Source: Microbotryum violaceum
Taxonomy: Eukaryota
Direction of reading: 5' to 3'
Assembly (NCBI GenBank): GCA_001244265.2
Contig: CDLV01000008.1
Location: 1,302,001 to 1,366,000, forward strand
DNA: 64,000 nucleotides
Below, one piece after another: positions 8,794 to 31,908 of this stretch. Below the pieces are notes generated by a model that did not search any database, had not been told where the DNA came from, and saw only the letters and a list, made by a program, of their open reading frames with translations. The translations under genes and the position numbers were made by a program. Within the stretch, counting starts at the first letter, position 1, and each line of letters begins with the position of its first letter.

Positions 8794-9167
8794 TGTTGTG
8801 GGAAATTAGTGGGGTCTGCGGTCCAGAGGGACTTATGGTCTTAGCAGTGGCGCGGGCGCGCGGGTGTTGTGCGGGGGACCGGCAGAGGCGGCTGGTTGTA
8901 CATGAGATTGCGTCTTTTTGGCCTAGCTGTTTTTCTCTCTTTTCCACCACGCACTCGATATCACATCTCGCCTAGTCGCTCTGTTACAGTCGATTGACCT
9001 TTAGCGACCCACTATCTCACAATAGGTTAGTTGAAATACATTACCACGCACTCGATATCACATCTCGCCTAGTCGCTCTGTTACAGTCGATTGACCTTTA
9101 GCGACCCACTATCTCACAATAGGTCATCTATCGACGCCACGTAACTAGAGACGCTCCTACAACAACA
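8794..9167 (+). repeat. 5' LTR of copia A (374 bp) with internal 80-bp direct repeat and intron-like segment 9026-9122
   Basis: Near-identical to 12851-13226; repeat copies at 8946-9025 and 9043-9122. Confidence 0.97.
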
Positions 9168-9171
9168 GGTT

Positions 9172-28490: not shown

Positions 28491-29342
28491 GCAAGGTCCC
28501 TTAGTAGAGCATCTATTACAGCTCAAAAAGAGATATGGTACATGAATCGATACAGGGGCCGAATCACACAACTGCTATGGTTCTACAGGACCCTGTATGC
28601 CCACCCAGTGACTTCCTCTGGTTCAGACTGGATGCTCTGCACCAAGGGCATTGCAAATAAGTACCATCCTGCAACATGGGGAAGTAGTGATGTCTCACAG
28701 CGCCATCCTCATCGCTATCATTATCGGCGTACCGTTCCGCCGCCAGCTTCTTCGCACTGGAGAATGAGGCGGCTATGTTCGATGTGCAAGAAAGAGCTTG
28801 GGGAAGGATCAGCCTGATAGTTTTTTCTGCCTAAACTGGTTTTTGGTCACTTGCCTACGTTCAGATGCTTGATAGTCTTTTTGGTGTCTTTGATAAATGT
28901 CTTCACCAAACTAGCATTTGTGCCCCAAGTCTTCTTGAGTATTGCCTCAGTGGGAACCTGCAACTGATGAAGAGTGACAAGTAGGCAATGCCGGTCAGCC
29001 AAGCCAGCACGCTCTGCCATGCCATTCAGGATACTGACTCACACTCAAGTAAATCCCCTGATTCTTGCCTCCTGCCAATTGCTTCGCATTGCTGAAAGGA
29101 AATGTCAGTTTGTTACCCGGGACCAGCTGGAGATTGTCGCTTTCTTCTGGACATGAGACTTCAGCCAGTGCCCGCGCTCCGAGCCCATCCCGATGAACCC
29201 CATAATCATGGACCTTAACTAGTCTCCAAGCCTCACTGATGTAAGCCCATGCGCATGAACGAGCAAGCGAAATACTGTAGTAAATATCCGTATTAACTCT
29301 GGAACACAGGGAGTTTCACAGGGCGGCATACATTGAGGCTAC

Positions 29343-31908
29343 TTACGTTCCAGAGAGCTTCTTAAATTCGTCTGCGCGCAGATCCTTCGTTGACACCACG
29401 TTCACACATATGATATATGATGCATCTTGTCGTCCTTTGTTGCTCTTTGGAGATCTCGGCATGCAACGTATGTAAGTACAATCCGCATAGTTACAACAGA
29501 TGAAGTCCTGAGTGAAGGCGACCGGCATTCTACACAGCCCTCCCGCGGCACAAGTTGGGCATCTGAGCTTGACCATGACAGGCTTGTGCGCCCGATACTC
29601 GTCCTCGAACAGCGAATGCCCTGGGTGCAAGCCGATAGTCTGTGCACAAAGAGGGGATGTTCAGAGAACCGATGGCCGTGACACCACCATTGTGGCAGCC
29701 AATCCGCCATCACGTCCCCGAACGTACCTTTTCCAGAATCCTTAACTTGTCAATTTGGTACTTGCGGACGGAGCCCGCTTCCCTGAATGCTCTGAACGTC
29801 TGGCGACCCGCCTGTGCTCCCTCCTCCACGAAGCCCAACTCCAGACCCATGACCTCGTAGCGCTGACGCACCATAGCCACGGTCGGTAGTAAGGGTCCCT
29901 CAACGCTCACATCGGGGTTTCGCCTGCGCGCGCCGTACGTTTGCGCAGCAGATGGCTCGAGGTCGGTAATCATCAATTCCAGCGAGGTCCTCCATCGCCT
30001 TGTCAGAGCGGCATTGAGTGATCGCAGCGCAGTCCGGTTTCTTTTGTACACCCACCAGCTATAAGAAGCCGTGGCGCGCAAATCTGGGACGAGCTCGGTG
30101 TGTTGTGGGAAATTAGTGGGGTCTGCGGTCCAGAGGGACTTATGGTCTTAGCAGTGGCGCGGGCGCGTGGGTGTTGTGCGGGGGACCGGTAGAGGCGGCA
30201 GAGGCGGCTGGCTGTTTACATGAGATTGCGTCTTTTTGAGCTAGCTGTTTTTTTCTCTCTCTTCTCCACCACGCACTCGATATCACATCTCGCCTAGTCG
30301 CTCTGTTACAGTCGATTGACCTTTAGCGACCCACTAACTCACAATAGGTCATCCATCGACGCCACGTAACTAGAGACGCTCCTACAACAACACGGTGGCG
30401 AGATGCGCAATTGACCCCATTGGATTGAGTCCATCAAATTGATGTCATTGAAGTGGGCCCCTCCAAAGACACATCTTGCGGGCACCGGTGAATACGTCTT
30501 GAAGCGACAGAAACAAATCGCCGTTATATTCGTATGCGGTTACACCACATGTGTCGGACCGAAATTTGCTTGGCGATGGCCAGATGGTTGGAACCTCACA
30601 GCGATGCACTGTAACAAACGCAGGTTCGTTAGGGCCAAGACGGAAGCATGGGCTACGTGCTCCTCCCTTTGTGATGAAATTGTTGTAACGTACCCAGCAG
30701 AATAGACTTGAAGGGGCGTGGTGAAAGGCGCTCGGTCACGGATGATGTCACATCGTCGAAGTCGAGGTCAATTTTGCCAAGGGGGATTTCTGATGGTAGA
30801 TTCGACGATTGAGTGAGCCGGTACCGCAGTTGCGCATTGAAGAATCGCTCACCTTCCATATTCAGGACACTGTCGTCGTGACCCAAGAGGTCATCATGGG
30901 TGTTCGATTCTTCCGAAGAACAAATCGATGCCGCGACGCTGAACTAAAGAGACGAAGGCGAGTCGCGAACTCGTGCGGTTTGTACGAGTTCCGCGCAGAA
31001 TACTTTGCTGTCCATTCGAGCATGATCCAACGTGTCGTCTCGTTCCTCAGGATCGGCCCCAGCAGAACCTGCAACGGTACCGTAATCGCTCGTCTCGCCG
31101 CGCGGTCGCGACTCGGGAACAGGCGGTTCCAAAGACTTCGGATTGTCCCCTTGGAGCGAAGTCATTGACATCCTCGATTGTAACTAGAGCGCCCAAATGG
31201 TCGATTTGGGTGGAACGGGCCATGAGTGGAACGGGCCATGGGTGGACTGAGCCATCACGTCAGTTCAGAATTGGCCCCTGACCATGGACAATGAACGGGC
31301 AGCCGCGACCATGGGAATGTCCATTTGCTCACCGAGCTGTAGTCTACTCGTTGGCGAATCTGTGGCTCGTAAAGCTTTTTCTCCGTTCCAGGAGACAGGT
31401 TCACTTCATTGATAGACTAGAAGAACTACAGAAATTTGGGGCGGAAGTAACGATTGTGACTGACGCAGTACGCACCCTTCGCAGTCTGACGGGTGATGGG
31501 TCGCGTCAACGTCGTCGGAGAAGCCTCGCTGGGAGGACCCGGCGGGCTCAACATCCTCAAACACGTCTTCGAGGCTCGATTTCCAATGAGGTTCGAGCTC
31601 AATTCATGTATGTGTGTTGGCTCCAAGGGGAAAGGAACTGAGAACGCCGGTGGCGACGCAGCGGCACCGGGTAGGTCGAGGACTTGGAGACGCGTCCGAC
31701 GCGATTGAAGTCTTGCTTTACGCTCAGATATCGGAGGTGGGGCATGAGCCTTTGGCGTCCATTTGTTTCGTCCTCCACGGGCCATCGTTGGTGGCCAGTG
31801 TGGTGGACTCAAAGGAAGCATCTTCCCACGCGGGCCCGCAGATGGCCGCGGTAGCACTGACGCCAAAGTGAGTCCTAATTTGTCGGACAAATTAGTCCTC
31901 TGAGTCAA
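29343..31908 (-). pseudogene. Multi-exon gene of unknown function with a Cys-rich C-terminus, interrupted by a solo LTR
   Basis: Minus ORFs 31426-31908, 30653-30886, 29710-30081, 29343-29630 (CPTC..C..CCNYADC..C); frame continues across the solo LTR (HLAT|ELVPDL); GT..AG intron near 29640-29730; one in-frame TGA near 30445. 5' extent uncertain. Confidence 0.4.
30101..30392 (+). mobile_element. Solo LTR of the copia A family, single-repeat ('spliced') form
   Basis: Highly similar to 8794-9167 but lacks the 97-bp segment; TSD CGGTG at 30096-30100 and 30393-30397. Confidence 0.96.

Follow-up and report, generated by a model that had tools for sequence, protein, structure and literature searches.

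Retrotransposition is the textbook eraser of introns and, to our knowledge, retroelements are thought to retain introns solely by replicating from unspliced RNA. Spliced LTR retrotransposons include Drosophila copia, the Arabidopsis Ty1/copia elements with a gag subgenomic RNA, and pea Ogre, whose spliceosomal introns are partially spliced and survive because the unspliced RNA is the replication template. The introns of these elements are internal, and we know of none among them that lies wholly inside the LTR together with a repeat of the leader. In the LTRs of HIV-1 and HTLV, a nearby 5' splice site controls the use of the poly(A) site. These viruses resemble the elements described here in having a splice donor in or beside R that affects the choice between the 5' and 3' LTR poly(A) sites, but their intron reaches far past the LTR, which holds no copy from which it could be regenerated. 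In several basidiomycetes, intron-less transcripts have been reported to accumulate poorly.

The window, that is, the whole 64-kb stretch of Microbotryum violaceum DNA analysed here, contains three copia families, A, B, and C, with LTRs of another design (Table 1). Directly 5' of the primer-binding site, they carry the layout [X]AG/GT-spacer-[X]AG/, where a slash marks a candidate splice junction, X1 and X2 are the two copies of X, and S is the spacer; the earlier note had described this layout at the same coordinates, and sequence reading together with repeat tools confirmed it. Its claim that an LTR without precisely this segment is also present in every family held when sequences and repeats were compared, the one for A being a solo LTR with a U3 92% identical to that of copia A, indels present. 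X1 and X2 are 100% identical, over 82/82 nt in A (X plus the next GT), 24/24 in B, and 61/61 in C. Each copy of X in copia A has 80 nt and S has 17 nt (GTTAGTTGAAATACATT), and copia B has an S of 45 nt (GTACGT...TTAACCG) within a candidate intron of 69 nt. Neither the simple LTRs nor the remainder of the window contains these spacers or that of C (16 nt); a search of the window outside the LTRs for their source gave matches of at most 9 nt for A, 10 nt for B, and 11 nt for C, which is chance level. With unique sequence that the simple LTRs lack, the full form is more than a plain duplication.

Table 1. Positions, in the window, of the LTRs of the three copia families and of associated features
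Feature	Position	Strand	Parts and remarks
Copia A 5' LTR	8794-9167	+	U3 8794-8945, X1 8946-9025, S 9026-9042, X2 9043-9122, U5' 9123-9167
Copia A primer-binding site	from 9168		GGTTATGAGTCC; gag ATG within the site at 9172
Copia A 3' LTR	12851-13226	+	X1 13005-13084, S 13085-13101, X2 13102-13181
Copia A candidate leader intron (S + X2)	9026-9122 and 13085-13181	+	97 nt, GTTAGT...AATAG
Copia A target-site duplication	8789-8793 and 13227-13231		5 bp, AAGCC
Solo LTR, A subfamily	30101-30392	+	single X 30268-30347; without S + X2 (exactly 97 nt)
Copia B 5' LTR	21632-21417	-	X1 21518-21495, S 21494-21450, X2 21449-21426, U5' 21425-21417
Copia B 3' LTR	17241-17095	-	single X 17127-17104
Copia C 5' LTR	23017-23205	+	single X 23131-23191; primer-binding site GGTTATGAGCTC from 23206
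Copia C 3' LTR	28002-28267	+	X1 28116-28176, S 28177-28192 (GTTAGTTACTGCAAAG), X2 28193-28253, U5' 28254-28267
Copia C candidate intron	28177-28253		77 nt, GTTAGT...TAG
Host intron, RNA-supported	17021-16951	-	71 nt, GTGAGT..CTGAC..CAG

In 3/3 window families, X starts with CCACG straight after a conserved CT-rich run, and this CT-rich...CCACG motif is the likely transcription start. The X sequences had been called largely unrelated between families, which slightly overstates the case, since A and C are distantly related: the score of their X sequences was exceeded by only 1.25% of 2000 shuffles, and both spacers carry GTTAGTT. Seven families of local direct repeats (start-to-start distance <=300) occur in the 64 kb; four of the seven are spaced and non-satellite, and three of these four are the LTR repeats, all three with AG/GTNNGT at the X1/S junction. 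The probability of finding YAG/GTNNGT at a fixed junction by chance is ~1e-4 per family under uniform base composition, and the X-S-X layout exceeds chance.

Pfam searches found gag (PF14223), rve, and RVT_2 in copia A and C, with the domain order PF14223, PF22936, PF13976, PF00665, PF25597, PF07727, as expected of a copia-type gag followed by protease, integrase, and reverse transcriptase. For copia B, Pfam gave rve alone (three ORF pieces), and the RT-RNase H region groups among fungal copia in the tree; all three families are Ty1/copia (Pseudoviridae). Their primer-binding sites, GGTTATGAG in A and C and TGGTAGCG in B, where the site directly follows the 5' LTR, presumably match the anticodon loop or 3' end of tRNAiMet. 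Sequence reading gave a target-site duplication, AGGGA, for copia B, and none was found between the flanks of the 5' and 3' LTRs of copia C (ACTGG versus GAAGC), which may be a recombinant. The empty-site joint of copia A (8788>13227) occurs in contigs of 4/4 sequencing runs compared and that of copia B (17089>21633) in contigs of runs X1, X19, and X4, and both insertions are missing from contigs of other strains. In a contig of run X1, A-internal sequence runs on into a single-X LTR, and 82 letters fit on either side of the joint. Since the A and B insertions are polymorphic and two of the related loci described below have intact ORFs (L076, 1496 aa; L031, 1482 aa), the copies bearing the block are recent and apparently live. 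An assembly artefact was rejected as the origin of the block: both LTRs of A have it, as do independent assemblies and a genomic contig of 12.5 kb (L076).

Among 80 distant copia loci retained from a metagenome scan, seven have the X-S-X layout (L010, L031, L050, L055, L062, L065, and L076), in sense orientation and either directly 5' of the primer-binding site or at the 3' LTR end. In 6/7, copy 1 has the form E1/GTRWGN...YAG/E2, with a canonical GT..AG intron of 50-58 nt, and copy 2 is E1E2 joined exactly; copy 2 in these six loci thus appears to be a DNA copy of the spliced leader. An exact-match scan for split repeats on both strands, preferred over MAFFT two-row alignments in which the intron gap fell poorly, gave 19 candidates, only five of them with a GT..AG gap and all five on the sense strand, and the same scan of three shuffled sets gave none; L050, concealed from the scan by one mismatch, was added by eye. 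With orientation as the control, local repeats bounded by GT/AG numbered 11/367 in sense, all in the seven loci, and 6/367 in antisense. Eight other loci whose primer-binding-site motif is of the same type did not yield the repeat, and none of 17 further loci gave an imperfect X-S-X bounded by AG/GT in a looser blastn search. No poly(A)-tailed contigs were found among the 80 loci, nor any copia relative in a viral contig collection queried with one protein or with an alignment.

The start of the repeat in these relatives coincides with promoter-like features. A TATA-like motif lies 32-38 nt 5' of the start of copy 1 in 5/8 loci examined, CCTC/AG(T/C) is directly 5' of copy 1 in 6/8 (L031, L050, L062, L065, L071, and L076), and copy 2 begins at this predicted transcription start. 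Between L065, L050, and L031, 12-15 of about 43 aligned E1E2 positions differ (about 30%), and within the same three loci copy 1 and copy 2 show 1/37, 1/41, and 0/37 differences; judged by these comparisons, the two leader copies evolve in concert. The intron and S can be aligned between L065 and L050, and the layout is therefore inherited. L071, which the tree places as sister to L065 (99*), has the simple arrangement U3-E1E2-U5'-PBS. Layout, the exact spliced second copy in relatives and its position at the predicted start of transcription, concerted evolution, and the coexistence of full and simple LTRs are what the sequences show.

The candidate introns of the window have the boundaries GTTAGT..TAG in A and C and GTACGT..CAG in B, and their sizes (69-97 nt) match those of host introns, as the earlier note had stated, the RNA-supported example in Table 1 lying in the same window. 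A heuristic ab initio scan of host introns suggests GTNNGT usage, including GTACGT, a weak hint that is noisy, partly circular, and of low weight because G5 and T6 are part of the scan's own score. Possible branch points are TTAAC in B, 27 nt 5' of the AG, CTGAG in C, about 20 nt 5' of the AG, and in A just CTCAC (~7 nt) or TTGAC (~30 nt); those of A and C are not obvious, which counts against reading the segments as introns. In the agaric loci, the 5' splice sites of S are weak, with no G at +5 (GTACTT, GTACTA, GTACAT, GTAAAC, and GTAACA). Among the 15 joints listed, out of 35 for four runs and from contigs only, none falls at 9025/9123, 21495/21425, or 28176/28254; runs X17 and X19 are RNA-like, as shown by a joint at a host intron and by a skip of 57 nt within B. 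The absence of an LTR joint among these 15 is uninformative for or against LTR splicing.

We propose that a set of Ty1/copia elements from basidiomycetes has an unusual LTR design, with the X-S-X block as its functional core. Transcription would start at the first base of X1, and the leader would be spliced from the X1/GT junction that opens S to the AG that ends X2, so that mature RNA, both messenger and genomic, would open with X-U5'-PBS. If the transcript ends within or after X2 of the 3' LTR, the 3' end of the RNA would retain unspliced U3-X1-S-X2, perhaps with only part of X2. Minus-strand strong-stop DNA made from the spliced 5' end would be complementary to X and could anneal to the X2 remnant, after which synthesis through S, X1, and U3 would produce a full LTR with the intron rebuilt; landing on X1 instead would give a simple, intron-less progeny LTR. 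X1 and X2 would be identical because X1 overwrites X2 in every cycle. Agaric-type relatives have an extra true intron within copy 1 (E1-intron-E2), and its additional removal from the 3' copy would give the X-S-X form found in the window. We infer host splicing, the poly(A) position, the RNA that templates reverse transcription, and any benefit, which could be intron-dependent expression or a 5' leader freed of a poly(A) or branch signal that lies in S.

Rebuilding of the leader intron at strong-stop transfer from spliced RNA is the best explanation for the whole and, as far as sequence can tell, a reasonably probable one. Its core had already been put forward in the earlier note, namely, a leader intron, X as the transcript start, and a spliced strong-stop product that rebuilds the intron, and this core is strongly, if indirectly, supported by the exact E1E2 second copy in six relatives, by the fact that this copy begins where transcription is predicted to start, and by concerted evolution. 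That leader-spliced RNA serves as the genome, with one or more introns rebuilt from a landing copy in the 3' LTR, in Ty1/copia elements widespread among basidiomycetes from Microbotryum-type smuts to agarics, is to our mind a slightly better than even prospect.

Alternatively, the leader intron could be real and replication conventional: unspliced RNA would be the template, X1-S-X2 would be inherited as ordinary R/U5, and occasional recombination with co-packaged spliced RNA, or template switching by reverse transcriptase between the repeats, would account for both the identity of the copies and the spliced state of the second. Retroviruses, and copia elements with internal introns, replicate in this way according to the textbooks, template switching at direct repeats is well established, and both the asymmetric LTRs of B and C and the single copy mismatches in L065 and L050 find an easy place in this scheme. 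However, such occasional events would have to hold the copies at 0-1 differences in 10/10 lineages despite divergence of ~30% between relatives, and nothing in conventional replication gives a reason for a second copy that starts exactly at the transcription start; we consider it unlikely. Ordinary tandem duplications, gained and lost by slippage or unequal recombination with GT and AG incidental, would fit the frequency of tandem repeats in LTRs, would yield exactly the intron-less forms by recombination between X1 and X2, and agree with the lack of a spliced LTR joint among the 15 listed. Yet YAG/GT stands at the same X1/S junction in 3/3 window families and 7/7 related loci, in sense orientation only, and the second copy is precisely spliced across a canonical intron in six loci, which makes ordinary tandem duplication highly improbable.

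A variant compatible with the rebuilding of the intron at strong-stop transfer holds that the block serves chiefly in 3' end formation, with S as the poly(A) signal, X2 as the landing pad, and splicing mainly stripping the signal from the 5' leader, with intron-dependent expression not its chief purpose. The 3' half of S is AT-rich in 9/10 cases (AAATAT, AAATAC, AATATT, TAATAAT, GAAATACATT, and, in window B, CATATGCAATTAA), the exception being window C (CTGCAAAG), and retroviruses must silence the 5' copy of the poly(A) signal when it lies in R. However, the AT-rich motif may instead be a branch point (TACTAAA in L065, TTAAC in window B), and we regard 3' end formation as a doubtful candidate for the main role of the block. 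Several further ideas were rejected. A one-step splice from E1 to the AG ending the second E1 could not occur in L076, whose E1 has GA as its last letters; a second promoter before copy 2 has no TATA-like motif at about -30; and end-to-end joining mediated by a poly(A) tail in each cycle finds no A-tract at the S/X2 junction.

The strong-stop model itself meets several difficulties. It expects identical LTRs in a new insertion, but in B, a polymorphic insertion with a target-site duplication, the 5' LTR is full and the 3' LTR is simple. The asymmetry of B needs an extra step, for example a later deletion or a switch of reverse transcriptase between the two X copies while the plus strand is made, and the differing LTRs within B and C are not accounted for by the model alone. 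It also requires the extra intron of the agaric-type 3' copy to remain unspliced, which counts against it. Moreover, the model predicts some three-copy LTRs (X-S-X-S-X) if unspliced RNA also serves as template, and none were seen. The leader intron in the LTR is probably a real and new observation, and its mechanism is what we infer from it.

If the proposal is true, the life cycle of LTR elements would gain a new step, replication from spliced RNA with restoration of the intron. The elements would carry a natural self-regenerating intron that allows splicing-dependent expression without intron loss, possibly with removal of the 5' poly(A) signal, which would explain how they cope with hosts where intron-less transcripts do poorly. 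A spliced leader copy beside an unspliced one is a signature that can be searched for in any genome. In line with the earlier note, which knew of no published account, we found no description of such LTR introns in full-text searches and passages of two Microbotryum papers, a coverage largely outside subscription journals and supplements.

Among known systems, the proposed cycle is close to the standard R-mediated strong-stop transfer of retroviruses and LTR retrotransposons, where a repeat shared by the two RNA ends likewise directs the first template switch, and U3 from the 3' end and U5 from the 5' end of the RNA combine into the LTR. In contrast to that transfer, the donor here would be a spliced 5' end, the acceptor would be a second leader copy downstream of the intron in the 3' LTR transcript, and sequence missing from the 5' end of the template RNA would be restored. 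The Rogers model reportedly explains intron gain by tandem duplication of a segment containing AGGT; it has the same geometry, [X]AG/GT...[X]AG/, and splicing restores the unduplicated RNA, whereas here the spacer is unique, diverged families have inherited the layout, and the two copies stay identical. In split-intron retroviral vectors (Ismail et al. 2000, as reviewed in PMC3182074), reverse transcription moves splice signals so that the integrated copy gains an intron that the packaged RNA lacks. These vectors differ in being engineered and in having the donor site copied from the 3' to the 5' LTR by normal duplication (PMC3182074), and, in the review's account of them (PMC3182074), no leader repeat lies inside the intron, unlike here. 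The design proposed for these LTRs would account for the mixture of full and simple forms and for concerted evolution inside the LTR, and would be a natural counterpart of the split-intron vectors.

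The region from 8.8 to 30.4 kb of the window is a nest of transposable elements in which three Ty1/copia families, A, B and C, share one arrangement near the 3' end of the LTR: a leader copy (X1), a spacer (S) and a second leader copy (X2), with YAG closing X, GTNNGT opening S, and S plus X2 forming the candidate intron. X1 and X2 are identical in all three families, and each family also has an LTR without exactly S and X2, namely the solo LTR of A, the 3' LTR of B and the 5' LTR of C. Re-reading the sequence with the help of repeat tools bore out the coordinates and layouts described in the earlier note. 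Spaced non-satellite repeats account for four of the seven local direct-repeat families in the window (start-to-start distance of at most 300), and the LTR repeats described here for three of these four. Tandem Repeats Finder, applied to the whole window, found no other period above 30, and no source for the spacers was found elsewhere in the window.

Transposable elements, LTR blocks and other features of the window
Feature	Position	Strand	Description
copia A	8794-13226	+	Ty1/copia
copia B	17095-21632	-	Ty1/copia
copia C	23017-28267	+	Ty1/copia
solo LTR, A subfamily	30101-30392
LINE-like non-LTR retrotransposon, degenerate	~13400-16600	+	endonuclease-/RT-like frames broken by frameshifts; copia A inserted immediately upstream
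family A block			X 80 nt; S 17 nt, GTTAGTTGAAATACATT
family B block			X 24 nt; S 45 nt, GTACGT...TTAACCG
family C block			X 61 nt; S 16 nt, GTTAGTTACTGCAAAG
tRNA-Ser(TGA) gene	32196-32268	-	~1.8 kb from solo LTR
tRNA-Glu(CTC) gene	54081-54151	-
microsatellite, perfect	54218-54322		(ACTTC)x21
microsatellite, perfect	61343-61473		(TCTTTCA)x18.7

Between the block and the primer-binding site (PBS) lies a stretch, U5', of 45 nt in A, 9 nt in B and 14 nt in C. The PBS of A and C, GGTTATGAG, contains the gag ATG (that of B is TGGTAGCG), and since this ATG comes right after a short U5', the LTR of these two families holds their entire 5' untranslated leader. In every family X starts immediately past a CT-rich run, at a common CCACG motif, a combination that looks like an initiator. 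Families A and C are distantly related by sequence: AGTGGGGTCTG and TTGCGTCTTTTT occur in the U3 of both, their spacers share GTTAGTT, and their X sequences align with a score of 12, which 1.25% of 2000 shuffles (average 5.6) reach.

By gene content and ends, all three elements are ordinary Ty1/copia members, and the best protein relatives of the C reverse transcriptase are Microbotryum copia polyproteins (at most 95% identity), which points to an anther smut of Microbotryum type as the host. Contigs of four public sequencing runs over 8700-28699 contain the empty-site joint of A (8788>13227) in all four runs and that of B (17089>21633) in three; A and B are therefore recent, polymorphic insertions. 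In the window copy of A the N-terminal half of the RT domain is missing, and a stop codon at 11034 splits the pol frame (T in the window, G in every contig of runs X1, X19 and X4 that covers the position). The copy is nonetheless a recent insertion, its LTRs near-identical, and mobilisation in trans is therefore probable. Copia C lacks a target-site duplication (flanks ACTGG versus GAAGC; 23012-23018 and 28268-28272); a contig of run X1 ceases to match the window at 23018, and one of run X4 spans 22250-23018 and ends there, probably at the same break. This element is likely to be a recombinant or to sit at a rearranged site. At position 14707 of the LINE, contigs of runs X1 and X17 have 459 additional letters and a run X4 contig continues with a 63-letter loose end starting GTAAGT; all of these probably stem from other element copies.

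Within copia B, a 57-nt GC..AG segment (19753-19809, minus strand; AG-GCAAGT...CTACAG) is skipped in the RNA-type runs X17 and X19 and does not appear among the joints listed for runs of DNA type. Either the element has an internal GC-AG intron here, shortly before the LWHQRLGH integrase motif, or this may be a deletion variant. Contigs of X1 and X4, both DNA-type runs, lack 66 nt of copia C (25728-25793, plus strand; GTAAGG...ATAAC...GCAG) that are in frame and bounded by GT..AG. This could be an indel resembling an intron, in a region variable and rich in Asp/Asn, or an intron that other copies have lost. Adjoining the end of copia B, a 71-nt intron (16951-17021, minus strand; GTGAGT..CTGAC..CAG) is backed by a spliced X19 contig, in a transcript that may be coding or non-coding.

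Relatives with the same layout occur in public metagenome contigs. Alignment of 20 relatives followed by a pattern scan gave 578 matches, 568 of them encoding relatives, and the best 80 loci were scanned for exact local repeats in direct orientation (X no shorter than 16 nt, period up to 300; 122 rows). The AG-GT layout is present in seven of these best 80 of 568 loci (L010, L031, L050, L055, L062, L065 and L076). In six, the 3' part of the LTR reads E1-intron-E2-S-E1E2-U5'-PBS, where E1 and E2 are leader exons: the first-copy intron is canonical and measures 50-58 nt (GTGAGT, GTATGT, GTAAGC or GTAAGA...YAG, with a branch-like CTGAC, CTTAC or CTTAT), E2 ends in YAG, S (12-18 nt) starts with GTAC or GTAA and has an AT-rich end, the second copy is E1E2 with an exact junction, and U5' (0-30 nt) leads to the PBS GGTTATGGGCCC or GGTTATGAGC. 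E1E2, exactly joined downstream of E1-intron-E2, identifies the second copy, at the level of sequence, as a DNA copy of the spliced leader. The remaining locus, L055, has the simpler, window-like X-S-X (X 22 nt; S 43 nt starting GTGTGT).

A split-repeat scan of both strands of the best 80 of 568 loci returned 19 candidates, five with a GT..AG gap, all on the sense strand, and three shuffled sets yielded 0; L050 was missed by this automated scan because of one mismatch. When the repeat scan was loosened to admit X down to 12 nt, each strand held 367 local repeats; GT/AG bounds were found for 11 of 367 repeats on the sense strand, all within the seven loci, and for 6 of 367 on the antisense strand, about 4 per strand being expected by chance on our own estimate (367 x 3/256). 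In the agaric loci S opens with a weak 5' splice site, and eight other loci with the motif GGTTATGRG have no such block, so the design is not universal. Intact ORFs are found in L076 (1496 aa) and L031 (1482 aa); the closest named relative of L076 is from Agrocybe (62% identity over 73% of the query), and, taken with the window elements, this extends the design over hosts of both Agaricales type and Microbotryum type. A FastTree built from the RT-RNase H region (86 rows; window C dropped for low coverage, three plant or short proteins removed) unites the six intron-bearing loci with L071 in a single supported clade (96), places L055 in another fungal subclade, and groups window A with Microbotryum and Rhodotorula sequences.

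Sizes are conserved among L065, L050 and L031 (E1 22-26, E2 15, intron 51-53 and S 14-17 nt), and intron and S can be aligned between L065 and L050. E1E2 differs between these three elements at 12-15 of ~43 aligned positions, and the two copies within them differ at 1/37, 1/41 and 0/37; the window offers a parallel, with X_A and X_C barely alignable and X1 equal to X2 within each. Such concerted evolution, with divergence between elements and identity or near-identity inside them, argues that the second copy is repeatedly renewed from the first. Among eight loci examined, a TATA-like motif lies 32-38 nt before copy 1 in L031, L050, L065, L071 and L076, and an initiator-like CCTC-AG(T/C) directly precedes copy 1 in six (the same five and L062), so that the likely first base of the transcript is where each of the two copies begins.

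The block is predicted to act as R region and leader intron in one, and its simplest account extends the mechanism of the earlier note, in which the intron is spliced from the 5' LTR and rebuilt by a strong-stop jump to X2. Transcription would begin at X1 (or E1), and leader splicing would give a mature RNA, messenger and genome at once, beginning X-U5'-PBS, with U3-X1-S-X2 (X2 whole or partial) retained in the 3' LTR transcript. Strong-stop DNA complementary to X-U5' would pair with the X2 remnant and copy S, X1 and U3, restoring the LTR; pairing with X1 instead would give a simple LTR, and an agaric-type LTR whose 3' copy lost its inner intron by splicing would become the X-S-X seen in the window. 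Each of the three LTR forms, agaric-type, X-S-X and simple, was found. L071 has a simple LTR (U3-E1E2-U5'-PBS at 2119-2176, with neither intron nor spacer) and is the sister of L065 (99), which is full, so both types exist inside one close lineage. In a run X1 contig, internal sequence of A (12288-13004) runs into a single-X LTR, 82 letters fitting either side of the joint; another strain thus has simple LTRs on elements closely related to A.

The AT-rich half of S could be a poly(A) signal, placing cleavage in X2 as the earlier note proposed, or it could instead hold a branch point (TTAAC in B, 27 nt before the AG; TACTAAA in L065). A conserved ...CTGAG at the end of E1 falls 15-24 nt before the final AG of copy 2, where by position it could be the branch site of the second intron. 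Several features weaken the regeneration account, among them the weak 5' splice sites at S in the agaric loci and the missing target-site duplication of copia C; nor does any of the joints listed for the four runs fall at an LTR splice. The account leaves unexplained an agaric-type 3' copy that keeps its inner intron, and the LTRs of copia B are unlike each other although a target-site duplication is present, which needs an added X1/X2 template switch during plus-strand synthesis or a later deletion. Structural asymmetry of the LTRs is reported for 26 of 88 HIV-1 proviruses (PMC9278108). On balance, we regard regeneration of the intron via spliced leader RNA as a moderately probable candidate mechanism.

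No description of regenerated introns within LTRs was found by full-text search or in Microbotryum genome and TE papers, among literature with few subscription journals. In spliced copia and Ogre elements the introns are internal and persist because unspliced RNA is what is replicated. Intron gain by duplication of an AGGT segment has its geometry in common with the block but lacks the unique spacer and the maintained identity of the copies. The nearest described system is an engineered split-intron retroviral vector (PMC3182074).
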